The position numbers and the translations under genes are program-made. A DNA stretch of 64,000 nt from Callorhinchus milii. Lineage: Eukaryota. A model generated the notes under the pieces. It was not told where the DNA came from. It made no database searches and saw only the letters and a program-made list of their open reading frames with translations. Where the stretch lies: positions 17,176,001 through 17,240,000 of the forward strand of contig NW_024704743.1 of NCBI RefSeq assembly GCF_018977255.1. The letters run 5' to 3'. Shown piece after piece: positions 23,931 through 53,974 of this stretch (position 1 is the stretch's first letter; each line of letters opens with the position of its first letter).

Positions 23931-24029
23931 GTAAGCAGCATTACTGGGAATTGTACTCCTAAGTGTGTATTAGGACGTGGAATGCAATGAGTCAATATTG
24001 AAATTAAATGAATGAAGTAATATTCTATA

Positions 24030-25450: not shown

Positions 25451-25459
25451 CTGTACAAA

Positions 25460-26793: not shown

Positions 26794-26837
26794 GTAAGTT
26801 TATTTAAAAAAATATTTTAAAGCTGCTCTTTTTGAAC

Positions 26838-27170: not shown

Positions 27171-27237
27171 CCTATCTCTTTGTTTGTATCTCTTTGTTAT
27201 AAATGCACACTGCAATATAATATTCTCTTTGTTGTAG

Positions 27238-30721: not shown

Positions 30722-31233
30722 GATTGGGGGGGTGAGGGGTGAGGATGAAGTGAGAGTGATTGGGGGGACGTGAAGTGAGAGTGATTGGGGGACGTGAAGT
30801 GAGAGTGATTGGGGGGTGAGGGTGAGGATGAAGTGAGAGTGATTGGGGGGGAGGGGATGAAGTGAGAGTGATGGGGGGGTGAGGGGTGAGGATGAAGTGA
30901 GAGTGATGGGAGGGGATGAAGTGAGAGTGATTGGGGGGGAGGGGATGAAGTGAGAGTGATGGGGGGTGGGGGGATGAAGTGAGAGTGATGGGGGTGAGGG
31001 GTGAGGATGAAGTGAGAGTGATGGGGGGTGAGGGGTGAGGATGAAGTGAGAGTGATGGGGAGGGGATGAAGTGAGAGTGATTGGGGGGGAGGGGATGAAG
31101 TGAGAGTGATGGGGGGTGGGGGGATGAAGTGAGAGTGATGGGGGGGTGAGGGGTGAGGATGAAGTGAGAGTGATGGGGAGGGGATGAAGTGAGAGTGATG
31201 GGGGGGAGGGGATGAAGTGAGAGTGATGGGGGG
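30722..31233. repeat. G-rich minisatellite, core GATGAAGTGAGAGTGAT plus variable G-runs, roughly 17 units
   Basis: Directly visible tandem units of ~25-35 bp. Confidence 0.95.
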
Positions 31234-31560
31234 TCCCTCTTGCTCTCGCTGTCTCTCTTGTTTGGCTGATCTTTGGCGCTGGAGGACTGCAGCTCTGGTG
31301 CCGGACGTTGGGACAGAGCGTCACTGACGCACAATCCCCGACGCTCACGTTCACTCTCTCAGTGTCTCAGGGAATCCGCGGCGCCTCCTCCTCACCAGGT
31401 GCTGTGGGCCCGGGCCCGGGCCTGGCACAGAGGGCACTGTACACCCACAGGAGCCGCGCCACTGAGCAGACAGTTGGGAGAAGCCTCACATGAGCCCTGA
31501 GGTGGGAGTGAGCGCAGGTCACAACATCCCCCCCCACGACAGCCTCAGCCCCCCCCACCC
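31234..31560 (+). promoter_or_regulatory. Putative CpG-rich promoter / non-coding first exon of copy B
   Basis: CpG-rich, upstream of copy B, donor-like gtgagcgcag at 31508; nearly identical to 62765-63090. Confidence 0.55.
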
Positions 31561-31965: not shown

Positions 31966-32785
31966 CAGAGTACTCACTGAAACCTGGCTCGGCCCTGCTG
32001 ACACCTCTCTCACTGAGGCCACCCCACCTATACCTTCCATTGTAATGCTAGCCTCTAACTCTCTGGTACCCTATCACTTCGTCAAGCTCCATCTCACTAA
32101 ATTTTCCACAATCTAAAATTTTATGACAGTGATCTCTTGGTCTCTTTTCCAACTCTCGTATCTAGTGAATGGAGACACCAGGCACAAATGGTTCACAGTA
32201 GTTCCTATAAATTACTCAAATGCCTACTGCATTAGAATTATAAATAAATACAATAATAAATAACCCTTGCATTTGATATAGCACTTTTCATGTCTTAGAT
32301 TAGAGTTCTATACAGGTCAGAGGATGGCCTCCTTTCTTGCTGTTTCCCAATGATTACTGGAGTCCCTGATATACAACTTGCATATCGTTCTTGGGAACTA
32401 AAGGAGTGTATCATATCTCAGCCTTGGAAAGGCGGCCCTGTTACATGGGAAGGGATGAGGTGCTAGTCAGAGGTTTTCTCCTTAAACTTCCTTGATTCAC
32501 TTAATATTTTTTTCCTTTCGGTGCAAGTGCTCTTGTCACCATCACTGACCATCTACGCTTTAAGGTTCTAATATTTGAAACTTTCCTCAAAGGGGAACAA
32601 AAATTCTGTTCAACAAAGACTTCCCAAATTCTAACTGAAACATATAGTCACTAATGTATTTTAATCTCATTTTAGGGATGGTATTTAGGGATTGATTTTC
32701 CTCCTTACCAAGATGAAGGGTAGAGTAAGACCTACGGAAGTTTCAATCAGAGCACAGCATCGTTCGAGGTGGAACCTGCAAAAGC

Positions 32786-32798
32786 ATGGCATTGGTAG
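32786..32798 (+). CDS. Candidate start-codon mini-exon of copy B (MALV plus phase-1 G)
   Basis: agcATGg Kozak context; ATG GCA TTG GTA G|gtaatg is a phase-1 donor matching the phase-1 acceptor at 33852, whose exon has no ATG before the TM helix. Possible acceptor ttttag ends at 32675. Confidence 0.4.
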
Positions 32799-33851: not shown

Positions 33852-33973
33852 ACAGTGAAGTTGTGAAGAGAATAATAATAGCTGCAGTAATTCTGTTCTT
33901 ATGTGTGACAAGCATAATAACAATTACAGTTGTCTACATAACCAAATCACAAATTCTGACTGCAGGAATGAAG
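33852..33973 (+). CDS. ENTPD3-like: Copy B TM1 exon
   Basis: cag|AC then SEVVKRIIIAAVILFLCVTSIITITVVYITKSQILTAGMK|gtatgt; homologous to 14674-14798. Confidence 0.85.
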
Positions 33974-34812
33974 GTATGTTAGGTGTTATTCAATTCCGTC
34001 CTTTTCATTTCTTCGAATGACAGCTAGACAATTATTATACAATATAACATTTTCAAAATAATACCTTCCAATTATCAGTCAATCAGTTTGATTTACACAG
34101 AGACACAATCATGTTTAACTTCATAAAATGTCCAAAGTGCCCAGTGGATTTTATAAATAGGGGCAGAGAATATGAAATCAATGGGGGAATGCTGAACTAA
34201 AATGCTAATAAATCATTAGTTGGAATATTGTGTCCAGTATTGGTCACTCCACTTTAGGAAAGACGTCAAGGCCATTGAGGGAGTGCAGAGGAGATTTACT
34301 AGGATGATACCGAGGATGAGTGGTTTGGCCCTGAGCGGAGACTGGAGGAACAAGGATATTTTCCACTGGAACAAAGAAGTTTGACGGTGACCTGATAGAG
34401 GTCTTTAAAATTATGAGGGGTTTTGATAGAAATTATAGAAAGAAGGCAAGATGGAGGTGTGGAGGGAGGAAGTTCCAGAAGTTACGGATGTTATATCTGA
34501 AAGCTTGATCACCAATGGTGGCATAGAAAGGATGGGGAACATATTCTAAGTCCAAGTTACAAGTAATTATACAATAGCACTAGAGATTCTAATAAACATT
34601 GTGATAAAAGTGCACAGAATAAACAATAGGCAACTAAGGTCTGATACTCCACCTAGTCTAAATCTGGAAGGCCAATTTGTCTTAAAATTAAGGTAATGCA
34701 GAATTGTGTATAGAATGAGGAAATAAGCATTTAGCATGATGTTGAGATCTTTTTTCTAGTGTTGAAAATGTTAACATCATTAATAAATGGGAAGTATCTC
34801 TCTCCTTTATAG

Positions 34813-34930
34813 TATGGGATTATTCTTGAGGCTGGAACCGTCAGAACAAAATTAACTGTTTACCAGTGGCCGGCGGAAAAGATACGTAACACAGGTGTTG
34901 TTAGTGAAAAATTAATTTGCTATTCTCAAG
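34813..34930 (+). CDS. ENTPD3-like: Copy B exon 2 (altered ACR1)
   Basis: 118 nt; YGIILEAGTVRTKLTVYQWPAEKIRNTGVVSEKLICYSQ. Confidence 0.93.
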
Positions 34931-34984
34931 GTAGGCAGCTCAAATTTTATTCTGAAACATGTTTAGCCTTTAGGCCACCAATAT

Positions 34985-35315
34985 AATAATAATAATCTTT
35001 GCATCTGATATTGTGCCTCATCAGTTCTTCGAAATGTCTCAAAGCGCTTTACAGAATATACTGTAAAGTGAATTGACTGTATATTTTGTGGGCAAAACGC
35101 GGCAGCCAATTGAGAACAGCAGTGTCCCACAAATAGTCGTGGATTGAGTGACCAATTTATTATTATTATTCTTTTTAAGCAATTGTTGTAAAAGCAATCG
35201 CCAATCAACTAATAACCAGGTTTCTAATTACTGCTAGGTAAACAGAGGCGTTTGGAGTAAGGAAACTTGCCCAACATTTCGCCCTGCCGGGAACCGAACT
35301 CGGGTTCTCGCGCTC
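34985..35315 (-). mobile_element. tRNA-derived SINE
   Basis: Reverse complement of the 8819 family. Confidence 0.8.
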
Positions 35316-36619
35316 TGTGAGGCATTATGTAATAATAGAGTGGTCCAATAAGTACAATATAATACAACTTACATAGCATTGTTCCCTATCGGAGGATGTC
35401 TCAAAGTACTTGACAATGCTGGTTAGTTACCCAAGCTGGGGGTGAGAGCCAAGGGGGACGGGAAAGGTAATAATAATCCTTGCATTCGATATAGCGCCTT
35501 ATAGTATGGTACTCCGTTGCATCTACACCTCCAATGTTATAAGCCAAGGGTGAAAGACTGAAATAAGTTGCTCTTTAAATGAACCAACTATACTGTAAAT
35601 TTCTATGTTTCTAGGATCTATTCTCCTCTTGTCAAAGAATTATCTCCTCAGTTCCACCCTGCACAGATCCAGGGCACTGCCATGATGATAGTATTCTTCT
35701 CAGCAGTAAATTACCAAGCTTGGTATCGTGTGCTAACAATGCTACTGCATCACCATCATGGTGTTGGGTAGGCTAACACTTTAGTAAAAACAGGAAAGCA
35801 CATTTGTAATGAGACATCCATCCAATGAGTCATTAAACTGAGGTCTGTTCTACCTCTTCTTCAAGTGGGTGGGTCAAAGATCCCTGACCCTATTCAAGAA
35901 GAAAAGGAGTTTGTAGGTGTATATGGATGATATTCTACACTTTTTCACTTCTAGTCTTGATTCCAGGTCCATCGATGTTCTCTGTCTGCTTGCCTGTCAG
36001 ACATCAAGGCCTAGATGAGCATCAACTTTCTGCAACTTAACATGGACAAGACAGAGGCCACCTTCCTTGGCTCTCACCAATGTCTCCTCCCCTCCATCTT
36101 TAACATCCTCAACTTCCCCTAACTTTCAATCTCACCGAACGAGTGCCCAACTACGGTTTCTGGTTCCATTCTCAGCTGTCCTTCCTTCCTCACATTCGGT
36201 CCCTGACCAAAACTAATTTTCTTCTCTTACGCTATATTTCTGCCCTGACATCACACGAATACTACTAAAACCCTTAACTACACTTGTCACTTCCCGCCTT
36301 GATTCCTCAGTACACTCCTCACTGATTTCCTCAGTTACACCAGGCACAGATCCAGCGAACCAAAATGTCACCACCCATATCCTGACTTGCACCAAACTCC
36401 TCATTCCCATCACATCGACCTCAAGTTGCTCTATATCATGTACCAATCCCTTCACGCTTAAGTACCTCCCTATCTCTCTGCTTGCAACTCCCCCCAAGCT
36501 AGCTGTGTACCTTCGCCTCCTTCGCATCACCATCAATAGCCAAGTCTTGTCACCACCTCTTAACTTCTGCAACTGCCTGCCTTTCTATTGCTTTGACTTG
36601 CCCCTTCTCTGTCTGTCCT

Positions 36620-38750
36620 CAACAACAACAACTTGGATTTATATAGCGCCCTACACGCCAGACGGCGTCTCAGAGTGCCTTACAGTTTAGGATCCCGGGA
36701 CCGAGCCAGGGGGAGGCGTGGGAAGGTGACCAAAGGCGCGGTCGAAAAGAAAGGTCTTCAGCAGAGACCTGAAAATGGGAAGGGAGGGAGCGAGACGAAG
36801 GGAGTGAGGAAGGCAGTTCCAGAGCCTCGGGGCATAGTGGCTGAAGGCACGGCCGCCGAGGGTAGAGCGGAGGACTCGGGGGACAAGGACTCCGCCAGAC
36901 CCAGAGGAACGAAGGCAACGGGTACTTTGCTGAGGAGAGAGGAGGTCAGAGAGGTAGGGGGGTGCAGAGGAGTGCAGGGACTTGAATACGAGGGTGAGGA
37001 TCTTGAAATCGATCCTCTCTGGGATAGGGAGCCAGTGCAGTCTGGCAAGGACTGGGGTGATCGGGGAGCGGAGTTTCATGCGGGTGGGAAGGCGGGCAGC
37101 AGAGTTCTGAATGAGTGGATTTTATGGATGGTAGTGGATGGGAAACCGACGAGGAGGGCATTTGAATACTCCAGCCGAGAGGTGACAAAGGCATGAACCA
37201 AAGTTTCAGCGGCTTTTGGGGAGAGGTATTGACGGAGACGGGCAATGCGTCGGAGGTGGAAGAAAGCGGTGCTGGTGAGGGACCGGATGTGGGGGAGAAA
37301 GGATAATTGGGGGTCGAACCTGATGCCTAGGTTGCGTACGGGTTCGGAGAGTTTTAGGGGGAGGTCGGGTAGGTGGTGGAGGAGAGATTTTAGACATTGA
37401 CGAGCCGAAGAGTATGGCTTCCGTCTTGTCAACGTTCAGCTGAAGGAAGTTTGTGCTCATCCCGCCCCTGAGATCTGACAGGCAGGCTGATAGAACATCA
37501 GGGGACTGGGGGTCGCAAAGAGAGGTGGAAAAGTAGAGTTGGATGTCATCTGCATACATGTGGGAATGTACCCCATGTCTGCGGATGACATCCCCAAGAG
37601 GGAGCATGTAGATCAGAAAGAGGAGGGGACCAAGGATGGATCCTTGCGGTACCTCGCAGGTGACCAGGTGAGAGCGGGAGGAGAAGCCATCTATGCAGAT
37701 GTACTGCTGGCGGTTTGTGAGGTAGGACTCGAACCAGGCGAGTGCGGTCCCACTGAAGTGGATGATGGAGGAAAGGCGGTGGAGGAGGATGGCGTGATCA
37801 ACTGTCGAACGTGGCGGAGAGGTCCAGGTGGACAAGGAGGCAGAGGGAGCCCTGGTCACAGATAAGAGAGGATGTCGTTTGTGACTTTCACAAGCGCAGT
37901 CTCTGTACTGTGGGCGGAAACTGGACTGGAGGGGTTCGAAGAGGGAGTTGGAGGAGAGGTGTGGGCGAAGTTGGGTGGCCACAACCCGTTCTAGAGCTTT
38001 TGAGAGTAAGGGCAGGTTAGAAATAGGGCGGTAATGGCTGGGATTTGAGGGATCTGGGGAGGGTTTTTTCAGGAAGGGGGTGAAGACAGCAGTTTTGAGG
38101 GGGGGCAGGGACTGATCCGGAGGAGAGGGACTGGTTGATGATGTCAGCCAGTAGTGGGCATAGGAGGGGGAGCTGTGTGACCAGTAAGTTGGTGAGAAGG
38201 GATTCAAGGCAGCAGGTGGTGGGTTTCATTCCCCAGTGCCTTCGCCTTGCTTCCTCCCTTTTCTCCTTCAAGGCCGGTCTCAAGACCTTACTCTTTGACC
38301 GTGCCTTCAGCTCCCCTATCAACTCTCTACCCCCTCCTCGCTCCCTCCCTTCCCTCACCCTGACCATTTCCCCCCTGCTCGGGTCCTGACCCAATTGTCC
38401 AACGCCTTGGGACGTCCTCCCGACGTGAAAGGCGCTCTGCAAATGGAATCTTGTTGTTGTTGTTTCATGGAAGTGATGGTGGGTGAATGGGAGGAGGGAG
38501 AGATGGGGAGGAAGGAATGTAGAATGGGGGTGATGGTAGGAGCAGATGATGAGGAGGGTGAGGGGGACAGAGAGGGCGTGGTGGTGGGTGACAAGGGGCA
38601 GGTGGATGAGGCTGCCTAGTGGAGATGTTCAGTATTTTAGTTGAAAAGAAGTCCATGACCTCCTCGCACTTGGCATTTGATACGAAGATTGAGGAGGCCT
38701 GAGGGGGCGGGCACGGAGGAGGTAGAGGATGGTGGTCCTCACAACACATC
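36620..38750 (-). mobile_element. Long L2 LINE (RT domain to 3' end) with a nested + strand L2 tail
   Basis: YRPISNLPLLSKALE, VPQGSILGPLLF, YADDIQLY and LHWLP motifs; (aac)n tail at 36620. Confidence 0.92.
38230..38463 (+). mobile_element. L2 3' end nested in the opposite-strand L2
   Basis: Flanked by TTTCAT on both sides (38224-38229 and 38463-38468), a probable TSD. Confidence 0.75.
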
Positions 38751-40546
38751 TAAAACATATCTCTTTGACCGGGTCTATGGTCATCCCTCGCTTCCTCCCC
38801 CCACTCTTTTGCTTAGGTTCGAGCTTGCCGCTGTGACAGAGCCTCGTGGACGCGCTGTTCCGTTTCCCTCACTGCTGCTGTTTTGGGGAAGCGTCCACCA
38901 CTCTCACTGCCTAAACTCACACCACAGCCCTGTCCTCATTCCTTCGCCCACGCACACTGCCTGGCAGCCAGTCTAGCCCCATGTCTGCTCGCCAGCCCGG
39001 CTGATTGCAGGTTCTGGGGCCACTGGGAGCAGCCGGGAGGTATGACAGTCCGGGGAGCAGCATCCCTGTACTTCAAGCTAGAGTGTGCTATACCCCTACC
39101 TTCCCAGCACTCCTAGTCTCCGTGCATCTGCCCTTCTGCTGATAAAGATCCCATGCCACTATTCAAAAAGAGAAGAGCATTTCTCTTGGTGTCCTGGCCA
39201 ACAATACCCCTATATTAAAAAAATGACCATTCACTTCATTGCTGTCTTTGTGCAATTGGCTGAGGGTAATCAACGACTGGAAGAGGTTGCCAGAAAAAGT
39301 AAAAAGGTAAAAAGAAAAGATAGTAAAAAAAAGTAGCGAGGACCCAAGACTAATTTGAAAAGCAGCTTGATGCAGTGACAGTAGGATGGGTGTTCTGGAG
39401 GAATGAGTTGGATGGGCCGGAGGGCCTTCTTCCAGACAAATCTTGTATCGAGTCAACCTCCGTGGCAGTTATGGTAGTCTGAGACTGAGGCGAGTGCTCT
39501 GTCTACTGAACTACAGGACGCCTTGCTCCTTCCTACTTCTGTCTGAGTATTCACAGAGACCCCCCCCCACCCCCATCAATAGGATGTCGGTTTGGATTTA
39601 TCACATTGTGGATAAAAATGGTTGTGAGACTTTATGACTGAAGACCTCTCTGCAGTCTCTGCAAATGTGATCGCCAACCCCCCCACTCCATTCCCCCCAA
39701 TACTCAATGAAGGTGCCACAGTGAGTCCAAAGCCAGCTGAGGCAACCGTTGCTGATTTTATCATGTGGAGCCCAGCAACTGGAGGCTTGGTTTGTAGAAT
39801 GCTGGCTTAACTCTTCAGTTTTTTCTTCTTGCTCATTCCACAAGCAAACAGAAGCAACCCATTTTACCCCATTAATTGCATATCACAAAATGTTATCTTC
39901 CAACAGTTAACATTACAACAACATCAACAAATTACATTTGTATTGTGCCTTCATGTTGGGAGAATGTCCCAAGACACTGAACAGTCAGGGATTTGGATCC
40001 AATCAGGGCGTTGGGATCAGGAGGGCTTGAAGGCAGGAAGGGTCTTGAAGGAGGCAAGGGAGGGAGCAAGGTGAAGGTACTGCGATGGAGTTCCAAAGGG
40101 TGGGGGCAGAGATGCTGAAGGCCTGAAGCCAATGATGGGGATGTGGAGCTAGCTGGAGCCTGCTGAGCAGAGGGAACGAACAGGTTGATATGGCGTTATC
40201 AGTTCACAGAGGTAGGAAGGAGCAAGGCGTCCTGAAGAGAAAACAATAATGAATTGATTGCTTCAATCCACAAATATTTGTGGGACACTGTTGTGCACAA
40301 TTGGCTGCCATGTTTCGCCCACAAATAAACAGTTAATTCACTTTACAGTACATTCTGTGAAGTGCTTTGAGACATCTAGAGGATGTGATAAAGTGTTATA
40401 TATCAAATGCAAATATTATAATTATTATTATTTATAAGGCCTTGGAGAACTTTGAATAGGAGGAAATATCTGTCAATCTCCAGCTACAACATCATATCGC
40501 TGTTTCAGGAGTGGTTATTATATTGTTTTTTGGTCATTTTAGTCAT

Positions 40547-40900
40547 GGAGTAGTTAGAGCACTCACCTCGCAAGCTTGCAGACCTGGGTTTGATTCCCGG
40601 CAGGGCGAAACATTAGCCAAGTTTCCTTACTCCACACGCCTCTGTTTACCTAGCAGTAAGTAGGAAACCGGTTAGTCAATTGGCAAGATCGCTTTTCTAT
40701 GGATAATAATCTCTTAAAATTTTTTTAAAAAGTTTGTCAGTCAATCCACGACTGTTTGTGGGACACTGCTGTGTGCAATTGGCTGCTGCGTTTTGCCCAC
40801 AAAATATAGTCAATTTCCTTTACAGTATATTCTGTGAAGCGCTTTGAAACATCTCAAAGACTTGACACTATAGCAAATACAAGTTTCATTATCATCATTA
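40547..40900 (+). mobile_element. tRNA-derived SINE
   Basis: gttagagcactc...gggtttgattcccggc...family core and tail. Confidence 0.8.
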
Positions 40901-40939
40901 TTTCAACCATCAATTAACTTACATCATTTACATCATTAC

Positions 40940-41526
40940 ATATGCGCTTTCATTACATCGAGGCTTGACAATGCAAACTCATTGCTTGTTGGCCTCCCCA
41001 ACTCCTCCCTCCACAGGCTGCAGATCATCCAGAACTCTGCAGCCTGTGTCCTCTCCCGCACCACGCTCCGCGGACTCTTATCACCCTCATCCTTGCCCAA
41101 CTCCACTGGCTTCTCATCACACAGAGGATACAGTTCAAGATCCTGGTCCTCACCTTCAAAGCCCTCCACAGTCTTGCTCCCCCCTACCTCTCCGACCTCC
41201 TAAACCCCTACCACCCTGTTCGCTCCCTCCGCTCAGTCGTCTCCGGTCTGCTTCACGTCCCTCGCCTTGCTCACTCCACTATTGGCGGACGGGCCTTCTG
41301 CCACTCTGCCCCACCATCTGGAACTCCATCCCGCAGTCCCTCCGTCTCGCCCCCTCCCTCGTCACATTCAAGATCCACCTCAAGACCCTCCTCTTCGACC
41401 GTGCTTTCAATCTCCCTACTTCCCCCCCCCTGTCCTCCACCCTCTCCCATCCCAACCTCCAGTTCTGGTCCGTAACTCCGTCCAGCGACACGAAAGGTGC
41501 TCTATAAAATAATTCTGTTGTTATTG
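40940..41526 (+). mobile_element. L2 3' end inserted immediately upstream of copy B exon 3
   Basis: GLPNSSLHRLQIIQNSAA motif; tail ends ~20 nt before the acceptor AG at 41545-41546. Confidence 0.88.
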
Positions 41527-41546
41527 TTTTCTCTTTTCTACCACAG

Positions 41547-41697
41547 AAACTGGTTCCCCTCAATACAAACAAAATCCTAAAAAAGCAATTGATTCACTGG
41601 CTAACTGCCTGAATGCCTCAATAAAAATAATTCCAAAAGAGGAACAAAGCCAGACGGAAATTTTTTTCCCAGCTACAACTGAAATGCGACTATTGTA
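41547..41697 (+). CDS. ENTPD3-like: Copy B exon 3 (altered ACR2)
   Basis: 151 nt; ETGSPQYKQNPKKAIDSLANCLNASIKIIPKEEQSQTEIFFPATTEMRLL; donor gtaaga. Confidence 0.9.
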
Positions 41698-42169
41698 GTA
41701 AGATGAGACTTTTTGTTCTTGAGAATTACACATTAGAGTAATATATAGCATAGTACGATCACAGAAACATGCATTTATATAGTGCCTTTCATGTAAAATA
41801 AAACATTCCAAGGTGCTATACAAATACAATTGAATGGAAAGGAAGTGGATGTCCCGTTAACAATGAATTCAAGAGCAAAGCAATTAAGAAAAGCAATAAT
41901 GCTAGGTTTGACAAATCATTGGTTAGGCCATAGCTGGAGTATACTATGTCCAGTTTTGGGCCTCACTTCAGGAAAGATGTTAAGGCCTTGGAGGTGGTGC
42001 AGAAGAGGTTTACGAGAATGATTCCAGGGATGAAGGGCTACCATTACGAGGAGGGATTGGAGAGGATGGAGAAAAGAAGGTTTAGGGGGGACCTGATACA
42101 GGTGTACAACAACAACAAAATTACATTTGTATAGCGCCTTTCACGTCGGGAGGACGTCCCAGTTTTGTA

Positions 42170-42595
42170 AGGGTAAATAGTGAGAGGACCCAGACCCGAT
42201 TCCTGGGCGGGGCAAACTCTTAGGCAAGTTTCCTTACTTCGCCCGCCTCTGTTTACCTAGAAGTAAGTAGGAACCTGGTCATTATTGATTGGCATATAGC
42301 TTTTCGGGGGTAATAATCCCTCCCCAAAAATTGGTCATGCAATTCACGATTGTTTGTGGGACACTGCTGTGTGCAGTTGGCTGCTATGTTTTGCCCACAG
42401 AATACATAGTCACTTCACTTTACAGGATATTCTGTGATTCGCTTTGAGAGGTCTCAACGACAATTACAAAAAAAACTAAAAAAACAAATTGATGCCTTGT
42501 TTGATAATCCCAAAAGTGGAACAAAACAAGGTGGAAATTTATTTGCAGCTACAACTGTAAAGCACTATATCAAATGCAAGGATTATTATTATTAA
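42170..42595 (+). mobile_element. tRNA-derived SINE interrupted by an ENTPD exon fragment
   Basis: Family core; the tail resumes at 42558 taaagcactatatcaaatgcaagg(att)n. Confidence 0.75.
42461..42557 (+). pseudogene. Decayed fragment of an ENTPD exon 3 (ACR2 exon) embedded in a SINE
   Basis: ataatcccaaaagtggaacaaaacaaggtggaaatttatttgcagctacaactg aligns to 41626-41681 with indels. Confidence 0.7.
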
Positions 42596-42715
42596 GTTTT
42601 TCCATTGATACGGGAGTCAGTAACTAGGGGACATAGTTATAAATTAGCCAGAAGAATAGCAAAAAAAAATTTAGGACGAATGTTTTTCACCTAGATAGTT
42701 GTTGAGATGCGCAAT

Positions 42716-43900
42716 GGAACATAGGAACAGGAGTAGGCCATTCAGCCCTTTTGAGCCCTTTCCGCCTTTTAATTAGATTTTGGCTGATTTGTATCTCAAC
42801 TAACCATTTGAATTCCAATTTCCTGCTTTCTCCCCATGTCCCTTAATATCCTGACCTACCAAAAATCTATCAACCTTACTGTTGAAGGTGTGGATGCATC
42901 CAGGATCCATGACCTTTTGGGGGAGAGAATTCCAGATTTCTACCACTCTTTGAGTGAAAAAATGCTTCCTGATTTCACTCTTAAATGGCCTGGTTCTAAT
43001 TTTAAGACTATGCCTCCTTGTTTTGGATTCCCCACCAGAGGAAATAGGCTCTCTGTATCTACCCTATCGAATCCCTTTGTCATCTTAAATACCTCAATCA
43101 AAACACCCCTCAACCTTCTAAACTCATGGGAATACAATCCACATTTATGCAGCCTTTTCTCGTATCTTAACCCTTTTAGGCCTGGAAACACTTTGATGAA
43201 CCTGCACTGCACCCCCTCCAGGGCCAATACATCTTTTCTGAGGTGTGGTGCCCAAATCTGAATGCAATACTCCAGATGGGGTCTGACTAATGCTCTATCA
43301 GTTGAAGTATCATTTCTTCCCCTTTATATTCCAGGCCCCTTGAGATAGAGGCCAACATTCCATTTGCCTTTTTGATTACTTTTTGCACCTGGGAACTAGT
43401 TTTTAGTGATTTGTGGATATGGACACCCAAATCCTTTTGCTCCTCCACTGTTCTTAATTTCTCCCCATTAAGAAAATATTCTGCTTTATCTTTTTTCGGG
43501 CCATAGTGGATGACCTCACACTTCCCTACATTGAATTACATCTGCTGCAGCTTTGGCCGCTCACTTAATCTGTCTAAGTCCCTGTGTAACTTCCTACTCC
43601 TATCTGCACAATTTACTGAGCCTCCGAGCTTCGTGTTGTCTGCAAACTTTGATATAAAACTTTCTGTTCCTTCATCCAAGTCACTTATATAAACGGCGAA
43701 TAGCTGAAATCCCAGAACAGACCTCTTGGAGACACCACTTGTCACATCCTGCCAAACAGAGAAAGTTCCCTTTATCCCTACTCTCTGTTTTCTGCCTCCC
43801 AACCAATTACCAAGCCAAGTTCCAAGGTTAGATCCGACTCCATGCGCTTCCATTTTCGCTGATAATCTTTTGTGTAGAACCTTATCAAATGCCCTAATGC
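42716..43900 (-). mobile_element. CR1 LINE RT to 3' end
   Basis: WLGGRKQRV, SKFADNTKLGG and LEGVQCRF motifs; ggaacataggaacagg tail. Confidence 0.9.
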
Positions 43901-44555
43901 CAAAACCTTAATGTTGCTGGCTTCATTGTTCCTGCAGAGTAGGATGGTAGAGATGGAGACCATTATTAGCTTTCAAGAGGGAAGCAGACAGGCAGACAGA
44001 AAGTGAGGGGCTCAAAGAGGTATGGGGATAAGGTGGGATGGTGGGATTGAATTGGTCTCCTTGCTCTATGGGGTGGTGCAGACTCGATGGCTGAAGGACC
44101 TCTTTCTGCAATCTAGATTTCTCTGTTTCTATGTTCTATGAGATAAGTAGTCAATTCATTAGAATTTGGGGGGAATTTGAATTTATTAATAATACAGAAT
44201 AAAACATAAAGAACTCTCATCTAAAATGAATTTTCCACTCCCATGTCAGACAATTTACCCATTTACTTGAACTATTTTCTCCATTAAGAACTGTCATCTT
44301 TCTCCAAACAATATTCCAGTGATTCTGTTCATGAGAAGATTCACTTTCTCATGCTCTGTGAAGCTTGCTGGCTTCATTGTTCCTTCCGTCTATAAATGTT
44401 AATTTACTTTACCACTGCCACTGCCAGCATCACCCACAAGCTGAAATGAGTAAAAAAAAAGTCAGGTTAATTGAGTGTCCTTAGATAATCTCTGAAACCG
44501 AAGATAAAGACGTGATCTCTGATTGTTTTCTCTCATCTCTTCCCGGAATTGTCAG

Positions 44556-44715
44556 TTTGCAGGACAAGGTCGTGGCAGAGAGAATATTTTCGGCAATTAG
44601 AGTTTTATTCCAAAGATTACCATTCGGTTATGGACATATTACATTTGTTTCTCCAAGAGAAGAAGCAATTTACGGCTGGATCGCGGCAAACTATTTAAGA
44701 GGCAATTTGGTGGTG
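44556..44715 (+). CDS. ENTPD3-like: Copy B exon 4 (ACR3)
   Basis: 160 nt; LQDKVVAERIFSAIRVLFQRLPFGYGHITFVSPREEAIYGWIAANYLRGNLVV; donor gtaagg. Confidence 0.93.
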
Positions 44716-45039
44716 GTAAGGATGTGTGGTAAAGTTATATTTCTTGAAGATTTATGGGTGAATTACATGACCACTTTTGCTATATGTGCTACAATATTTA
44801 CTACAAATTCAAAATATAAACACAAAACAAAGCCCTGTTCTCCAAACACACCCATGCCAAAGACGACAGTATAATTTTTTGATTAGCCAGATGTCTGACA
44901 CTTGCGGGAACTCATCACCATGCTTAAGAGTATCCAGTCTCTTTGGTTCCTTTTGACCTGTTTTGATTTTGTGGGAATGAATTTTGAATGTAGCCTTGCC
45001 AACAAATCCTTAAATAGTGTATATATATTTAATAACTGT

Positions 45040-45520
45040 AGAGAAAGGAATTGTGCCAGAGGACTTGAGAATGGCCAATGTAATACCTATTTTTACAAAA
45101 GGGTGATAGAGCTACTCCAGGAAACTGCAGGCCAATGACCTTAACGTTGGTTTGGGGTAAGGTATTGGAATCTATAACAAAATATGAAATAACTAGTCAT
45201 CTAGAGAAGGAGAATATATAAGAGCATGGATTTATGAAAGGAAGGTAATGTCTGTTCAACCTTATTTAATCATTTGAAGATGGAACTGGTAAAGTAGACA
45301 AGGGAAATGCAGTAGATGTAGTCTAATTGGATTTCCAGAAGCCCTTTGATAAAGTGCCGCATGAGAGGCTCGTACTAAAATAGGGGCATTTGGAATTGTG
45401 GGAATGGCAGTAAAATGGATTAAAGAAAAAACATAAAGGATTAAAGATTAAAAGCAAAGGATAGGAGTTCAGGGCATCTTCTCAGGCTAGCGAGAGGTGG
45501 TGGTGGAAGCTTAGGGATCC
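45040..45520 (+). mobile_element. CR1 RT fragment
   Basis: gcatggatttatgaaagg; gatttccagaagccctttgataaagtgccgcatgagaggct. Confidence 0.8.
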
Positions 45521-45680
45521 AGAAACATCAGAAATGGGCCAATTAACCTTTTGAAGAATCAAATACCTTTGGAATTAAGATGAAAAATGTTCCATTGAAT
45601 TGAAAAGAAAACACTTATATTTTCGTATTTATGTGATGAGATGTGATTAAGTTTGTTCTTTTTTGCCAAATCCTTTGCAG

Positions 45681-45908
45681 TTGGATGGTTTGCAACAATA
45701 CAAACGCTCTCCATTATCCAGGACCACAGGTGCTCTAGCCTTAGTTGGAGGTGCTGCACACATCACCTTTATTGCCAAGAAGGTTTCAAAATATATTCCT
45801 ACATACAAAGTTACACTGTTTGGGTATAAATATAAGGTCTTCACTGAAACCTTTGATTGCTTTGGATGGAAGGAAGCTGAGTTGAGACTACTGGTCCATA
45901 TTTATCAG
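45681..45908 (+). CDS. ENTPD3-like: Copy B exon 5 (altered ACR4)
   Basis: 228 nt; LDGLQQYKRSPLSRTTGALALVGGAAHITF...LFGYKYKVFTETFDCFGWKEAELRLLVHIYQ. Confidence 0.92.
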
Positions 45909-47059
45909 GTGATTTAGAAATATCAATGTAAATTCTGTAAAAGTCAGTTATTCTGAGCTTGATACATTTTGTACAGGAGTTTTCCGATATATGTGAATTG
46001 ATGTGCACATTAAGGAGACACGTACTTGTTCCCAATATGTACATTTAACAAGGGATTACCATACACTGGCTGTCAGAATTTTTTGGTGGAGGCAAGGTTT
46101 TGAGAAATCCATCACCATGCTTAAGAGTTGCACACGTTTGCCACTTACAGCCAGAAATTCCGATATCTGGAAAGGAATGCACACTCTCCCTAGAGTGATG
46201 CACCCTGCTCACATAATTCTGGAGAATAGAAGCGCAGTTTAGCAAGAGCTAAGACTTGGGTATTCCACAGTGTGCTGGAGTTTAACCAGCTAAAACAGCA
46301 TAGTTTGACATTGAGAACACTGTCTGACAAGCTTCCTGCTGCTTGTCCAGTTAGGACCACCCTACCAGATAGGACTTTGGCTTCCAGGATTAAAAACAAC
46401 AAACAACAACTTGCATTTACATAACGCCCTTCACAAAGTGTCTCGGAGCACTGTATGGTGGGATTAGATGCTGAACAGGGAAGGGGGAGATAACCACAGG
46501 TGCAGATGAAGAGGTAGGTATTCAGGTAGGATTTAAAGATAGATTAAAAAAAGGGGCGAGGTGAAGGGATTGAGGCAGGAAGTTCCAGAAATTAAGGGCT
46601 GAGTGAAGGTACAGCTTCCGATGGGGGCAACACACAGTCCATGACAGTCCACAGTCCCTTTGGAATCAGAGGTGATAGAGGGCTTGAGGTGGCAGGGAAA
46701 TGAAGTAAGTGATTTGTAGAGGAAAAAATGAGCTTGAGATTGGCCTTGGCCTCCAAGATGACTGAACATGAGTATTTGCTGTGTCTAGTTGGGCCGCGGA
46801 TTTCACCTAAAAACAGTCACTCCATTTTAGAATAAATCCTGTGAAGCGCTTTGAGACATCCTCCCAACATGAAAGCCTATACCAAATGCAAGGAGGTTTT
46901 CGCTTTGGAGAGAGAGTGATGGTACAGCTGACCAGTGGGAAGAATCCTTGCACCCAGTGTCTGGTTTGCCCCTCCATATTCTGCCAATGAGCCAGGCAGG
47001 CTAGTATGTCATTAGCAGTGCCCTAGAGTACCACAGACCCACCTAGACGAACAGTATAC

Positions 47060-48780
47060 AATTTACATTTATGTAATACCTTTAACATTGGAAGAAAGTA
47101 CATCTCAAAGAGCTGACTGTTGGCTGGACATCCAAACTATGGATGGGGAGCTAAGGAGGGAAGGGAGGGTAAAAATGACCAAATGTGCAGACAAAAAGGT
47201 ACGTTTTGAGATGGGGCTAGAACAAAGGAAGGGACGGAAACAATGAGATTTCAGGATGGAGTTCCTGATAGCGGGGGCAGAATGACTGAAAGTCCACCTG
47301 CAAATGGTGGGGCGGATATGGTGGGGGACATAAAGCAGGCCAATGCTCACTGAGTAAAGAGAGAGGAAGTGTTGGTATGGTTGAAAGGAATTCACAGAAT
47401 TAGGGTGAAATAATCGGAATTTGAGAATGAGGATCTTCAATTCAATCCACTGGGGTTAGGGAGTCAGTGGAGCCAAGTGAGGTTGGGGACGGGGGATAGG
47501 ATATTGATTTTAGAATTCTGTAGTGTGTCAGCTTGGCTCAGGAGTCGCTGTCTGTGCTCTGAATCAGAAGATTGAAAGTTCAAGCCCCACATGGAGACTT
47601 GAACTCACTCCAATATAGTGCTGGGTGGAGAGGTTGGGTTTGCATTATCAGAGGTGCCAAATAAAATTGGCCATTTGTTTCATGGCTGTTTGTGGGTCCT
47701 TGCTGTGCCAATTGTGCTGTCGCATGTGCCTACAATCATACACTCACTCCATTTCACAGTAAAATCCTATGAAGCGCTTTAAGGCATCCTTCATGACTTG
47801 ATAATGCACTACATCAAATGCAAGAAGGCTGAAGCCTGTGTAACCAGCTGGGAAGTTTGGTGAGAGGACCATTAATGTAGTCAAGCCTGATGTGATAAAG
47901 GTATGGATGCGGATCTCGGTGGCCCAAAAGGAGAGGCTGAACAGGCCAGAATACAGATATGGGATTTCAAAGACTGTTGTGAGTCAAACAAGACACCGAG
48001 GGTCCGAGTGGAGGTCAGATCGATTCATGTTGATGCTGTTAGCCTCTGAGGTGAAAAGGTGCTGCCGGGAACCAAGCAGACTCTGTCTTGCCAAATTCAA
48101 CTGGAGAAAGTTAGCTCTCATTCCAAGACTTTATCTCCCACATGTAATTGGTCAGAGCAGTGGTCCTGGAGTTGAGAGTAGAGACAGAGAGATTGAGTTG
48201 GAAGTGAACCTCATGTATTTGGATGATATCACTGAGTGGAAACATATAGATGGTGAAGAGGAGAGCACCGAAGATAGAGCCTGAGAAACTGAAGGTAGAA
48301 CAGAGTAATGAGGCAGTGGAAAAGGTTCAAGTGGTTGACAATGTCAAAAGCATCAGAGAGATCAAGGAGAATAATGAGACAGAGAAAGCCTTTGTCACAA
48401 ATGGAGAGAATATTGTTTGTAAGTTGCACTAGGGCAGTCTCTGTGCTGTGGATTGAGCAGAAGCTGATTGGAGAGGCTGCTGTGGGGAGTGCCAGGAAAT
48501 GACTCATCCAGCACCTTGGAGAGAAAAGGCAGTTTAAATATTTGTCATTAACCGTGGAAGGGTTTCTTCAAGGGAGGGTTTCTTAAGAAGGGGATGGCAA
48601 TGCCTGTAATTTTGAAAGAGGTGTGACTGTACTAGTGGAGAGAGCTTCACGATGCACATGGGGGAGGGTGGGGAGAGCAAGAAGAAGTTGGATGATCAGG
48701 ATAGGGTTGGGGTCAAGAGTGTAGGTAGTAGGTTTTATGCAGGAGATGACGGAAGAGCGAGATGCTAGAGACAGGATCAA
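47060..48780 (-). mobile_element. Old L2 fragments with an intervening Deu-type SINE (~47520-47825)
   Basis: HSTETALV and LLDLSDAFD motifs on the minus strand. Confidence 0.7.
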
Positions 48781-48829
48781 GAACTGGAATAGTGGACACC
48801 ACGGGGTTGTCTCATTTCCAGAATTCCAT

Positions 48830-49936
48830 TGTAAGAAAATAAAATCAGCCAAATCTGTAAGGAAATAACGCTAATTCCTTTAACCAGATATCAGACTGTT
48901 TTATTATTATTCGTTCGTTATTCCCCAATATCCCGATGGGTCAAACCAAAGGCCGGTACAATCAACAGATCTTATAACAGAATAACACTACTATAGATAT
49001 ATCGAGTTCAAGAGTTCAAAACTGTCTTTTCAGCACACAAGCTTGATTCTTCATGCTTTCAGTCTTCTTGCTTACAGCTTTCAATCTTCCATCTGATATC
49101 CTGTCTTAGTGTTTCTAGCTCTCAGTTTTCCATCTCTGTACCCTTGTCTCTGCAGCCCGGGATGGCCCCATCTCCCGTATCCTTGTCTCCGCGACCCGGG
49201 ATGGCCCCATCTCCCGTATCCTTGTCTCCGCGACCCGGGATGGCCCCGTCTCCCGTATCCTTGTCTCCGCGACCTGGGACGGCCCCATCTCCCGTATCCT
49301 TGTCTCCACGACCCGGGACGGCCCCGTACACAAAGTTATCGGAACTCTTATACCAATGTTCATCCAATCGTGGTGCGGACATTAGATCACCTGTCGAAAT
49401 CATGCTGGGTTCACGTGAGCACCTCATGGGGTGTACGTGCCTCAGCACACGACACATTGTCCTTAAGACCCCTGTTATCTGATCTAATTGTCGAAGATAG
49501 AGGATTGATCAGTTTAGGACTGTATCTGGTGCTCATTATTTTGTGGTGTGGGATCATTAGTACATTCCTTTTAAGTGACTGGTTATTCCTTATCAGTATC
49601 CCGGGATGGTACTAAGGTCCTCTAGTTTAAGCAACTTGCTCATTAATTGCTATTCTTGAGGGTTGCCTTCTGTTGCTTGGCCCTGTCAGAATCTAGTGAC
49701 TTATTGCTCAGTCGAGATCCTGGGTCGACTGGTACCTCTGTGGCTTGTTGTCATTTACTGATAAGAGGTGACCCCCTGCCCCTGTCCGTCCATTATTCTT
49801 TCAAAAACAGAGAAAACCAGATGTGTCCTATCCCATGACTGTCAGTCCAGTTGTCCCCCACATTTAACTTAAAAGTTAACCCATTCACAACATCTATTAT
49901 GATTCTAGCAGTATACAAAAAGTGTGTATTCTAACA
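48830..49936 (-). mobile_element. LTR-like element related to 3822-4665, containing a 39-bp tandem repeat
   Basis: Shares a ~370-nt block and the same terminus (...ctaaca); left boundary uncertain. Confidence 0.55.
49130..49326. repeat. 39-bp tandem repeat, ~5 copies (ccccatctcccgtatccttgtctccgcgacccgggatgg)
   Basis: Directly visible; head-to-tail with no spacers. Confidence 0.95.
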
Positions 49937-50328
49937 GTATGTCACCTTGAACTCACTTGAATTCCGTGGGGACTTTGCTTACCTCCCCTCCAAGGAATCT
50001 AGTCATTGGATGGTAATTTGACATTTCAACAAGCATAAGTTTGAGCCCTCATGAGGTAGATAGCAGCCTGGATTACTGGAGGCTTATATTTGGAACTATT
50101 CATAATAAGTAGCAAACAATCCATGAGAATTCTAAATATTAATGTCTAAAGACCATTTTCGAATTGTAGCACATTTGAATTATTTTCAAATATATATACT
50201 ACAGTATACGAATAATATACGGTTCACATATGATTCATATGCTCTACTTGTATTCAGATGCTAATTCTGTATTAATGTCGAAACTTTTATTGCTTATACA
50301 CTCCAGCTAATCTTTTTTTTAAATTTAG

Positions 50329-50601
50329 GCTTCAGAAGGCAAAACAATTCTTGAATGTCCTTGTTGGCCCTCGGGTTACAATCACACAATTTCTGTGAAT
50401 AATTTATTTGGAAGTTTATGCACTGTATCGAAAAAGACAGCAGATTACAAGCCTGATGTTATGGTAACTTTCATTGGAAAAGGAAATCCTGCGAAGTGCC
50501 AACAATTAGCGTACTTATTGTTTGATTTTGAAGCTTGCTCTGGTAAACGTTATTGCACATTCAATGGATACTATGTTCCAGAAATCTATGGAAAATTTAC
50601 G
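50329..50601 (+). CDS. ENTPD3-like: Copy B exon 6
   Basis: 273 nt; ASEGKTILECPCWPSGYNHT...SLCT...GKGNPAKCQ...FDFEACSGKRYCTFNGYYVPEIYGKFT. Confidence 0.93.
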
Positions 50602-50701
50602 GTAAATTGCAATTGCAAATATTTGAAAATCTGAATTTATCTGCATGTTAGGTTATGAAATTTACAGTAGAATTATATATATTTCCATCCAAATAATCTA
50701 G

Positions 50702-50812
50702 GCATTTGGCGGATTCCATTACATGAGAAAAGCCTTGCAGTTGCCGCTTTCATTTCCAGTGACTAAATACAATCAGGCAGTTTGGTCTTTTTGTACAAAA
50801 AAGTGGGCTGAG
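50702..50812 (+). CDS. ENTPD3-like: Copy B exon 7
   Basis: 111 nt; AFGGFHYMRKALQLPLSFPVTKYNQAVWSFCTKKWAE; donor gtaagt. Confidence 0.93.
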
Positions 50813-51544
50813 GTAAGTAACAAATTGCTCTTTTTATCCTAAAATGTTGTTAAGATGTGGAAAGTATTCCAAGATTGAATCTTATGGATTTGGTCAGTGA
50901 CATAAAGAATGTGTTTGTGTTCCTATTGTAAAGCAATGCAACTGTAACTAAGATTTTTTTTAAAAGCAAAAGTTTCCATCAAACACCCAGATGAAATATT
51001 ATACATCTCTGAATATTTTTGCTAAAACTGTGGGGTCAAAATTCAGTTGCACCGCATAACAAACATGATATAAGATTAATAACATAATTGGGGAATAGAA
51101 AAAAACAATGTACATAATTGTACATATGAATTATCTGTGAGTTATTTGGATGATTTATTTGGGAATACAGCTCTGTAGTTAGGCAGGAAATAGGCTTGTG
51201 TTGGGCCATTACTTTAAAAATAGGAAATTGGGTCATTTTGACAGATAACTTTGACGCAATATCGATACAACTCATTGGAACAGCATAGAATGTTTTAAGA
51301 AAAAGTTATTAATATGACTCATTGGAACAATGTCGACTGCAGCTTATGTTGGTGGTGGTGACCACAGAATGTAGTTAAAATATATTTGTAGAATACATAA
51401 TAACAGGAAAAACCCAAGATAAGAGTGTAATCCTCACGTAAACATAATTCAAAACCTAATTGTGTGCCTGTCATCGGTGCGCTATGGTATAGCTTTCCTT
51501 TTACTAACTTCTCGGGTGCTCACAAGCTGAATCCTTTACTACAG

Positions 51545-51900
51545 CAACAACAAAAACAACAAATTGCATTTGTATAGCGCCTTTCATTTTGGCAGGACGT
51601 CCCAATGTGCTGTACCATCAGGGATTTGGACCCAAGCTGGGGTTTGGGATCAGGAGGGGTGGAGGGCAGGGAGGGTAGGGGAGGAAGATTAAGTGTAGAC
51701 GCGGTCGAAGAGCAGTGTCTTGTGATTGAAGGAGGCAATACAGAGAGCAAGGCGAAGTGACTCTGGGATGTAGTATCAAAGAGTGGGGGCAGAAAGAATG
51801 AAGACCCGACCGTTGATGGTGAAGAGGGCCGGGCGGGGAACTGAGCAGAGAGAATGGGAAGGTCTGTATGGAGCTAGCAGGTCACAGAGTTAGGGAGGAG
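51545..51900 (-). mobile_element. L2 3' end
   Basis: (caa)n tail and tgtatagcgcctttca. Confidence 0.8.
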
Positions 51901-52606
51901 CGTCTTTTGAGGTCAGTGTGTCCTCATTCTGTCTAGGACTACAGAGCCACTGGATCTTGAGAAACAATGTCTTTGAGGTGCCTTGCTCTGCAGTAACACT
52001 TTCTGCCTTCTTTCTTTCTCATCTCTGCTGTGTTTTGCACTCCACCATGTGCTGTCCCATTATTTACCTTGTTCTCTGAGGTGTCTTTATCTGAGTTGTA
52101 CTGCTTTCTAAAGAGTTGAACAGTTTTATAGCTTTTGGGAGAATTGTGCCAGCCTTCCTTCTTTAAACTTGAAACTATTTACGAGCAGTGTATAAATGTA
52201 GTTTCCACCAAAACAGTATCCTTTGATGTAAGGAAGGAAGGAAGGCTGACACCATTCTCCCAAAAGTCCATGATATAAGGTGCTAAATCAAATACAAAGA
52301 TTATTAAAATCAACTGGTTTCAGAACCCCAGAAGTCATACTCAAACTCTATAATGTTCTGGTAAGACCGCACTTAAGAGTGCTGCGAACAGTTCTGATTG
52401 CTGCAACTTAAGGGCCCAGGCCCCAAAGGAAGTGCAGAGAGCAACAAGGATGAACCCCAGAGTTAGACAAATAAGCCTTGAATGACGATCAGACAAGCCA
52501 GGAATCGTGAAAGGAGGCAGCTCAGAGAGGGCCCTGGGTATATACTATTTTAAATGGGATTGTGAAAGTCATCACAGAACAATACTTTTGGATGCACCAC
52601 GACAGA

Positions 52607-52915
52607 ACAACAGTAACAAAAACAAAATTATTTTTGTATAGCGCCTTTCACGTCGGGACGATGTCACAAGGCCTGGACAGTCAATGCTTCGGACTTGAGC
52701 TGGGGTCGGGATCAGGGAGGGTGGAGGGCAGGGCGGGAAGCAGGGTGATTGCAGACATGGTCGAAGAGGAGGGTCTTGAGATGGGTCTTGAAGGAGGCAA
52801 GAGAGGAAGCGAGGCGGAGGGACTGCGGGATGGAGTTCCAGAGGGTGGGGGCAGCGGTGGCTCAAGGCTTGCCCGCCAATGGTGGGGTGGGCGAGGTGGG
52901 GGATGTGAAGCAGGC
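52607..52915 (-). mobile_element. L2 3' end inserted in a CR1-like fragment
   Basis: tgtatagcgcctttcacgtcggga...gtcttgagatgggtcttgaaggagg. Confidence 0.85.
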
Positions 52916-53563
52916 AGAGAAGAACCAGAGGTCAGAGGTTTTGAGTTTCAAAGAGAAATTATAGGACAGATATCAGAAGTACCCTGATGATTAACAACTG
53001 GAACAATTTACCAGGAAGAGTGATTGAGGCCAGGAACATGATGCTGTGGTGAGAAGGTGGTAAAGTGGGTATTCTGGAAGGATAAAATCAAATGGACTCA
53101 ATAGACTTCTTCATCTAAATCTCTTGTGTTCTTGTGATGAAAACACTTACAAACTGTCCACAAACAGTCGTGAATCCATCTCAAGCCATGAATGTTTGAG
53201 GGACACTGCTGTGTGCAATTGGCTGCCGCGTTTCGCCCACAAAATATACAGTCAATTCACTTTACAGTATATTCTGTGAAGCGCTTTGAGATGTCTTGAA
53301 GACATGATAAAGCACTTTATCAAATGCAAGGATTCTTATTGTTATTTTATCTACAACTAGTAATTATAAAGCACATTTCATGATTTTTTTGGTGTCAAAA
53401 TATTTTACAAATTGAGATTAATTAGAAATTAACTAATCTTGTTATGGAGGCAAACATGGCAGCTAATTTGTACTGAAAATGGCACAAAAATCAATGCTAT
53501 ACAGTGATATAAGAATAACATGACTAAATAAGATAAACTAAACAAATATTACCTGTCTTACAG

Positions 53564-53701
53564 CTAAAAATTATGTTTCCAAATATCTCAAATACCTTCA
53601 TCAGATATTACTGTTTTGGTGGACACTACATATACACACTGCTAGTACATGGGTACAAGTTTAACCCAATGAACTGGAAACAGATAACTTTTACAAATAA
53701 A
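53564..53701 (+). CDS. ENTPD3-like: Copy B exon 8
   Basis: 138 nt; LKIMFPNISNTFIRYYCFGGHYIYTLLVHGYKFNPMNWKQITFTNK; donor gtaagt. Confidence 0.92.
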
Positions 53702-53788
53702 GTAAGTTTAATGATTTTTTTTAAAATAGCAAATTCAACTGTTTCTGATTTATGCAAACGCAATGCTGCAGTGTTCTCCTTGTTTCAG

Positions 53789-53974
53789 ATAAAAGGACAC
53801 AAAATAAACTGGTCACTTGGTTTCATGTTAAACGTCACCAATAAGATTCCACGAACCATTCGAGGGATCAAAACTACAATGTCTTCAACTACTTTTAAAA
53901 CACTTTTCTTTGTGTTTTTAATCATAGGGATGGTATGTGTAACAATTATTTTCAAGGCAATTTTCAGTGAATAA
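53789..53974 (+). CDS. ENTPD3-like: Copy B last coding exon (ACR5 and C-terminal TM helix)
   Basis: IKGHKINWSLGFMLNVTNKIP...TLFFVFLIIGMVCVTIIFKAIFSE then TAA stop. Confidence 0.92.
   Translation: MKGHKINWSLGFMLNVTNKIPRTIRGIKTTMSSTTFKTLFFVFLIIGMVCVTIIFKAIFSE

Follow-up and report, generated by a model that had tools for sequence, protein, structure and literature searches.

The window analysed here is a stretch of 64,000 nucleotides from a chimaera, the elephant shark Callorhinchus milii (G000:C2:17176001-17240000), and it carries two genes, A and B, of a tandem array of three ENTPD3 genes in which B lies in the middle and the third gene, C, just past the window end. On balance, B, together with C, is probably an ENTPD3-derived pseudoenzyme, kept as a non-catalytic, membrane-anchored ectoprotein that acts by protein contact. 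The whole case concerns one species and is built from sequence and model evidence. The original prediction had described B as a structurally intact but catalytically rewired paralogue of the NTPDase family, close by implication to NTPDase2 and selected for a non-hydrolytic role; parts of this description stand and others do not, as detailed below.

Altered active-site loops in B and C

We compared 12 key positions of the apyrase conserved regions (ACRs), in the numbering of A, which agrees with the NTPDase2 residue numbers of PMC5803232, with a reference set of 113 non-chimaera proteins, obtained from 999 matches by taking the best 120 listed and removing seven chimaera entries. No key position is changed in A, eight are changed in B (D45E, S48T, A123T, G124E, D201A, G203V, A205G and S206A) and seven in C (D45E, G47S, A123N, G124A, E165L, D201H and A205V); among the orthologues, 111 of 113 have no change and two have one. 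D45E, T207A and Q208H are common to B and C, and C has Leu at the catalytic Glu of ACR3. The B motifs originally read, EAGTVRT (ACR1), ATTEMR (ACR2), SPREE (ACR3) and GALALVGGAAH (ACR4), were recovered unchanged, as were the retained ACR3 Glu and ACR5 Trp (E194 and W469 in B numbering), but the count of three altered loops on three exons becomes four loops on four exons (2-5). In a wider scan of the family at 11 positions, one of 116 representatives showed at least three changes, all in ACR4; these were the representatives with 10 or all 11 positions aligned, out of 148 unnamed ones (150 listed minus two chimaera proteins), and other degenerate paralogues may be hidden, because the query was canonical and the scan listed the best 150 of 4489 matches.

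In every productive structure, the Asp residues of the ACR1 and ACR4 DXG motifs are in contact with the metal (PMC12489842, available part), and docking places phosphate contacts at G47, S48, S49, T122, A123, G203 and G204 (PMC5803232, available part). The same portion of PMC5803232 cites a paper whose title has CD39 Glu174 and Ser218 required for activity; at the counterparts of these two residues, B lacks the Ser and C lacks the Glu. Measured against active E-NTPDases, B reads E-A-G and A-L-V in place of the two DXG motifs, T-T-E in place of the ACR2 TAG and Ala in place of the ACR4 Ser (S206A), with the Glu of ACR3 and the Trp of ACR5 still present, and it falls within the sequence definition of a pseudoenzyme as a protein whose conserved catalytic motifs are absent (PMC10211241, in the part available). 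Judged from motif changes that are absent in 111 of the 113 orthologues, B has likely lost catalysis, and the original prediction was probably right on this point. In C, the catalytic Glu is gone, and so are the Asp of both DXG motifs and the two base-stacking Tyr. The short-loop Cys pair (C328/C334 in A) appears to be replaced in three shark ENTPD3s (P0066, P0101 and P0108), two of which have S48A in ACR1.

B might instead still be an enzyme with a rebuilt site, acting on another substrate or at low activity, which we regard as improbable. Glu165, Thr122, Arg50 and Trp440 are all present, Glu45 and Glu124 are new acidic residues, two of the changes (D45E and S48T) are conservative, catalytic residues have migrated in some pseudoenzymes (PMC10211241, same part), and the six single-base nonsynonymous changes in eight ACR4 codons lie slightly above neutrality (P=0.026, for a stretch chosen post hoc). 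However, D201A, G203V and S206A together eliminate the second phosphate loop, a change set found in none of the 113 orthologues and approached, with at least three changes, by the single representative mentioned above; moreover, C, which has D45E, T207A and Q208H like B, lost Glu165. It would be similarly surprising if B bound nucleotides or nucleosides without cleaving them, as a sensor or decoy. The base-stacking aromatics of human NTPDase3 (Y375 and Y417; PMC12489842, available part) correspond to Tyr and Phe in B, which also retains the Arg67 counterpart, but the metal and phosphate contacts are gone, the ribose-contact pair (NTPDase2 R245/D246) is Trp/Lys, C is without both aromatics and the Arg, and B has almost no C-terminal cytoplasmic tail with which to signal.

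The identity of the array is given by several lines of evidence. A, B and C group together (100/100) in a 27-protein tree, nested in ENTPD3 (100/99), with three shark ENTPD3s outside the group, a weak sister pairing of B and C (85/67) and terminal branches of 0.22 (A), 0.78 (B) and 0.53 (C). Of the best 120 matches listed, the 113 non-chimaera ones all bear the name ENTPD3 or no name, and database proteins identical to the array genes are labelled Callorhinchus milii ENTPD3. RPL14 lies 9 kb beyond C (C2:17266435), an adjacency that we take to be the known ENTPD3 neighbourhood. The nested clade and the RPL14 neighbour indicate a lineage-specific triplication of ENTPD3; tree, match names and neighbour thus depart from the NTPDase2 identity first implied, and an NTPDase2/8 identity for B was ruled out by the tree and the names of the best matches. 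The PF01150 (GDA1_CD39) profile matches all five B exons scanned (E 5e-4 to 3e-8; one of the five alone exceeds the whole-protein cut-off) and is carried by the RefSeq B model P0128. Synonymous distance per branch is 0.22 in A, 0.23 in B and 0.175 in C, and pairwise distances in intron flanks are 0.33-0.37 (alignments filtered at >60% identity). Outside the array, the NTPDase1/2/8-like genes on C7 and C8 have canonical motifs where aligned.

Upkeep and possible decay of the B frame

The nine-exon open frame of B at 33852-53974 was confirmed by splicing at its coordinates, with AG/GT at all junctions and exons 2-9 sized as in A (118, 151, 160, 228, 273, 111, 138 and 186 nucleotides). These nine exons have no ATG upstream of the first transmembrane helix (TM1); a tenth, upstream exon completes a frame of 522 amino acids (aa). 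Hydrophobic segments at residues 27-59 and 494-522 correspond to the two helices claimed for B, the second (TM2) reaching the C-terminus and leaving almost no cytoplasmic tail there, and all 10 conserved ectodomain Cys are present, together with an eleventh, C297 in exon 6, that had been missed. The two helices and 10 Cys of a surface E-NTPDase are therefore present in the genomic 522-aa frame, which would presumably be delivered to the surface, and the annotated 431-aa form lacks five of the 10 Cys. Contigs from run X5, possibly the assembly's own sample, cover exons 1, 2, 4, 6 and 7, and one from run X3 covers exon 5, with no differing letters; these contigs make a sequencing error unlikely as the source of the B changes, and together with identical RefSeq proteins they led us to reject an assembly error.

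All rate tests compare three paralogues of one genome, unrooted and with A-C gene conversion in exon 6. Whole-gene dN/dS ratios (omega) for A, B and C are 0.63, 1.16 and 1.06 by codon maximum likelihood (ML) and 0.56, 1.03 and 0.96 by NG86. Neutral simulation at a synonymous distance of 0.23 left the B frame open in none of 3000 runs even with indels set aside (12.7 stops expected), and with indels the frame survived in 16% of runs at 0.01 and 1.4% at 0.02 substitutions per site. As the frame is not survivable under neutrality, B has long been maintained as a protein, and any neutral share would be at most about one tenth of the B branch, too little for 11 ACR changes.

The distribution of changes within the proteins differs by site class (simulations with A codons as ancestral proxy, 2000 runs). 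In B, none of the 10 Cys is changed where 3.9 changes are expected under neutrality (P=0.005), and 16 of 79 non-ACR invariants are changed against 29.1 expected (P=0.0015), whereas 11 of 24 ACR invariants are changed against 8.5 expected (P=0.20). The pattern is sharper in C, with six of 79 non-ACR invariants changed against 23.7 expected (0/2000 runs) and 13 of 24 ACR invariants against 6.9 (P=0.009). By direct count, ACR invariants are changed at 13/26 and other invariants at 25/93 in B (p=0.033), and at 14/26 and 15/93 in C (p=0.0002). Variable sites of B have an omega of 1.75 (p=0.008, one of seven tests and sensitive to alignment error), and B has 72 unique amino acid changes relative to a shark outgroup where A has 41 (p=0.004). 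A scaffold kept while catalytic loops are released is, as far as such counts can tell, the signature of a pseudoenzyme. Because the ACR changes of B lie at the neutral expectation, they point to released constraint rather than to selection for altered loops; of the claim that selection and not pseudogene decay shaped B, the long upkeep of frame and fold is borne out by the simulations, and the "rewiring" of its active site is not.

A number of results weigh against a maintained non-catalytic role for B. The B omega does not differ from 1 (p=0.43, ML), so that the near-neutral ratio which the original prediction had named as contrary evidence was in part found; the ML site-class fit for non-ACR invariants gives an omega of 0.69 with p=0.18, and the simulation P for these sites rises to 0.046 at a branch length of 0.17. 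Motif changes do not always inactivate, as ENTPD5 G201A leaves activity unaffected (PMC3829800, available part). The TM segments are the parts in which A and B are least similar (35% and 22% aa identity), which disfavours shared oligomers. Protein searches and a HMMER scan (best 150 of 4489) found no B- or C-like protein in other species, a weak search that missed A's own exon 6 (66% identity), covered no other holocephalan genome and is no evidence of absence. Finally, the three database models with B sequence (P0129, P0128 and P0004) all skip exon 6, an exon 6 search (three matches among 15 candidates) returned no protein carrying it, and contig 9 of run X2 covers the ATG exon (32674-32793) and then joins exon 7, out of frame. 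AlphaFold2 models of exon-6-less B are poor, with a pLDDT of 65 and pTM of 0.52, residues 226-247 and 249-291 below a pLDDT of 50, and a TM-score of 0.58 to NTPDase2 at a root-mean-square deviation (rmsd) near 8 A.

The remaining transcript evidence concerns the same exon. RefSeq P0129 (431 aa) is exactly the genomic B frame minus exon 6; in P0128 (376 aa), an alternative acceptor at 53772 additionally removes ACR5 and TM2; and UniProt A0A4W3JGY9 joins exon 5 to exon 7. Contig 18 of run X3 (750 nt, depth 28.6) contains an exact match to exon 5 with 251 letters downstream of it, the sum of 2+111+138, and from these lengths it would appear to continue into exons 7 and 8 and skip exon 6; that runs X1-X3 are RNA is a guess, and X3 and the database models may share underlying data. 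Among the 15 read joints listed none was exonic (4261 more were unlisted, in an output dominated by repeats), and the low cover of exon 6 in X3 was not used as evidence. Spliced transcripts of B thus exist, and those seen are without exon 6, at the cost of five of the 10 conserved Cys; "structurally intact" holds for the DNA of B and not for the expressed product as seen so far. Exon 6 itself is open, has splice sites like those of A and C and keeps 12 of 14 invariants. RefSeq isoforms of A skip exon 5, exon 6 or both, and one of C skips exon 5, so that exon skipping appears common in the array.

B may be on the way to losing its non-catalytic role as well, given that exon 6 is skipped in the transcripts seen. 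It could have been a functional non-catalytic paralogue that recently lost its role and is now transcribed, mis-spliced and in early decay, leaving C as the only working copy; we consider this unlikely, though clearly less so than a rebuilt enzyme. Besides the exon-6-less or shorter transcripts and an omega of about 1, this scenario draws on the weaker constraint on structural invariants in B than in C (16 and 6 of 79 changed), on the extra Cys and the inverted exon 8 fragment in intron 7, and on a frame that stays open in 39-16% of runs when it evolves neutrally for 0.005-0.01 substitutions per site. Yet exon 6, which is open, has canonical splice sites and is conserved at 12 of 14 invariants, would survive a neutral distance of 0.23 with indels in 0.04% of runs, skipping isoforms are also annotated for A and C, the upstream element of B is 99% identical to that of C, and the motif loss is left unexplained, since 0.02 substitutions per site would be far too few for it.

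B may be eroding now, and C is the cleaner pseudoenzyme candidate. Full-length C is modelled by AlphaFold2 with a pLDDT of 82 and pTM of 0.76 and superposes on rat NTPDase2 with a TM-score of 0.90 and rmsd of 2.4-2.5 A, indicating an NTPDase fold, although this model and that of exon-6-less B are not compared like for like. With RefSeq models that include all exons, changes at six of 79 structural invariants and a good fold, C deserves at least the attention given to B.

Possible roles and related systems

The pseudoenzyme reading of B and C can be put as a sequence of events. ENTPD3 was duplicated in tandem in the chimaera lineage to give A, B and C, and retention of extracellular ATP/ADP hydrolysis by A would have freed the catalytic loops of the other two. 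B lost the metal-binding Asp of ACR4 and the phosphate-loop Gly, Ala and Ser and gained a Glu in ACR2, C lost the catalytic Glu itself, and both would have been kept as two-helix, disulfide-bonded surface proteins with a constrained scaffold and fast variable sites. B and C may modulate A as inactive subunits of membrane oligomers, by analogy with the inactive NTPDase3 splice form, or equally serve as a recognition surface for another protein; either has a modest chance of being correct, and some other role is less plausible. The low A-B similarity of the TM segments and the fast variable sites lean slightly to a surface partner other than A. A complex prediction for A paired with exon-6-less B (residues 25-431), run without alignments and control folds, scored 0.00 and gives no verdict on contact. 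More speculatively, B and C could be old, surface-diversifying pseudo-NTPDases, co-regulated through a recently homogenised promoter and forming a receptor or recognition module or inhibitory subunits for ATP clearance by A, with exon 6 skipping as a regulated switch; we offer this only tentatively.

B shares with vertebrate ENTPD3/NTPDase3 its fold family, its exon layout (as in A), the two TM helices, the 10 Cys, the ACR3 Glu and the ACR5 Trp, and differs at eight of the 12 key ACR positions, in a faster amino acid rate and in its exon-6-less transcripts. The Callorhinchus milii "ENTPD3" entries XP_007896322.1, XP_007896324.1, XP_007896325.1 and A0A4W3JGY9 are automatic models of B itself, all without exon 6; the ACR loops are nearly invariant in the family, B and C both go under the plain name ENTPD3 in databases, and the names seen for these four entries are silent on motif loss. 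A splice variant of human NTPDase3 described by Crawford in 2007 is reportedly inactive and affects the active form. The truncated, inactive NTPDase mt-PCPH/ENTPD5 is proposed to act by protein contact (PMC3829800, available part), and the 376-aa isoform of B likewise lacks ACR5 and TM2. These inactive NTPDases found in the literature are truncations of active genes, whereas B and C, probably inactive as well, are encoded by separate genes, with point-substituted loops and an intact frame.

Hexokinase-like proteins belong to the same ASKHA superfamily as NTPDases. Arabidopsis HKL1 (PMC2755033, available part) is, as B probably is, a non-catalytic paralogue about 50% identical to its active sibling, but is intracellular, predicted to bind ligand and experimentally tested, where B is extracellular and known here from sequence. 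Among the papers listed in our literature search (20 of 1360, none containing ENTPD3, and 20 of 68), with subscription papers mostly outside its coverage, none describes these genes or reports an inactive NTPDase paralogue with a gene of its own, and the available part of PMC3718344 has nothing on these genes. If functional, B and C would be natural catalysis-free NTPDases and would allow a direct test of CD39-family roles beyond hydrolysis and of inactive-subunit tuning of ecto-ATPase oligomers; if B is decaying, it would still offer a dated case in which an enzyme went through a pseudoenzyme stage.

Coordinates, upstream elements and minor features of the array

Table 1. Features of the ENTPD3 array, in window positions; exons of B follow the original numbering and residues the numbering of A.
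Feature	Position	Strand	Remarks
Copy A, canonical ENTPD3	14682..27423	+	493 aa, unchanged at 12/12 key positions; identical to RefSeq P0130
GC-rich element upstream of B, putative promoter or first exon	31215..31500	+	GC 0.63, CpG obs/exp 0.56
B upstream exon, start codon (ATG 32713), 27-aa basic N-tail, phase 1	32676..32794	+	X2 contig 9; RefSeq P0128 and P0129 begin here
B exon 1, TM1	33852..33973	+	Splicing, hydrophobicity
B exon 2, ACR1: D45E (34828), S48T, S49V	34813..34930	+	
B exon 3, ACR2: A123T (41678), G124E (41681)	41547..41697	+	
B exon 4, ACR3: G162P (44653); catalytic Glu165 retained (44662)	44556..44715	+	
B exon 5, ACR4: D201A (45738), G203V, A205G, S206A, T207A, Q208H	45681..45908	+	Exact match, X3 contig 18
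B exon 6, uninterrupted frame of 91 codons with 5 conserved Cys and one extra	50329..50601	+	Missing in all B models and spliced contigs seen
B exon 7, base-stacking Tyr retained	50702..50812	+	
B exon 8	53564..53701	+	
B exon 9: ACR5 Trp (53810), TM2, stop	53789..53974	+	Alternative acceptor 53772 gives 376-aa form without ACR5 and TM2
Upstream element of C	62745..63031	+	Sequence match
Copy C, coding exons	64199-81417 (window frame) = G000:C2:17240199-17257417 (loci L009-L010)		Beyond window

The GC-rich element of B has three matches in the genome, one upstream of each copy, and is 99% identical to that of C and 79% identical, over 91 query bases, to that of A (at about 8180-8280). Such identity of the elements in B and C genes that are otherwise about 68% identical suggests recent gene conversion and shared regulation by way of the converted element, whose promoter role is putative. 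A coding exon of another gene was rejected as its nature, as it has no convincing frame. At 30727-31670 (B) and 59302-63304 (C), a G-rich minisatellite (about 15 and 114 copies, respectively) is followed by the GC-rich element and then by a C-rich tract.

A further conversion tract lies in exon 6 of A (23444-23716) and C (window frame 78409-78681), where 28-30 of 30 letters are identical over about 180 nt. UniProt V9KLG9 is an A/C chimera that switches inside this tract, either an assembly artefact or a recombinant allele.

Within introns, we noted an inverted 71-nt exon 8 fragment in intron 7 of B (52132-52266; 82% identical to exon 8 of B and 75% to that of A) flanked by a 33-nt inverted repeat, five tandem copies of a 39-bp repeat in intron 5 of B (49130-49325), and a perfect 75-bp duplication in intron 7 of A (25301-25450). 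The ectodomains of A, B and C are strongly basic, with isoelectric points (pI) of 9.3-9.6; one shark protein has 9.1, and mouse and coelacanth 5.8-6.2. N-glycosylation sites number 2-5 in A, B and C versus 8-10 in mouse and coelacanth. Elsewhere in the genome, the middle one of three NTPDase genes on C8 (C8:18571833-18576354, L020-L021) matches from exon 4 onward only; exons 2-3 of its neighbours are unmatched there in a region without N, and it is possibly a partial duplicate.

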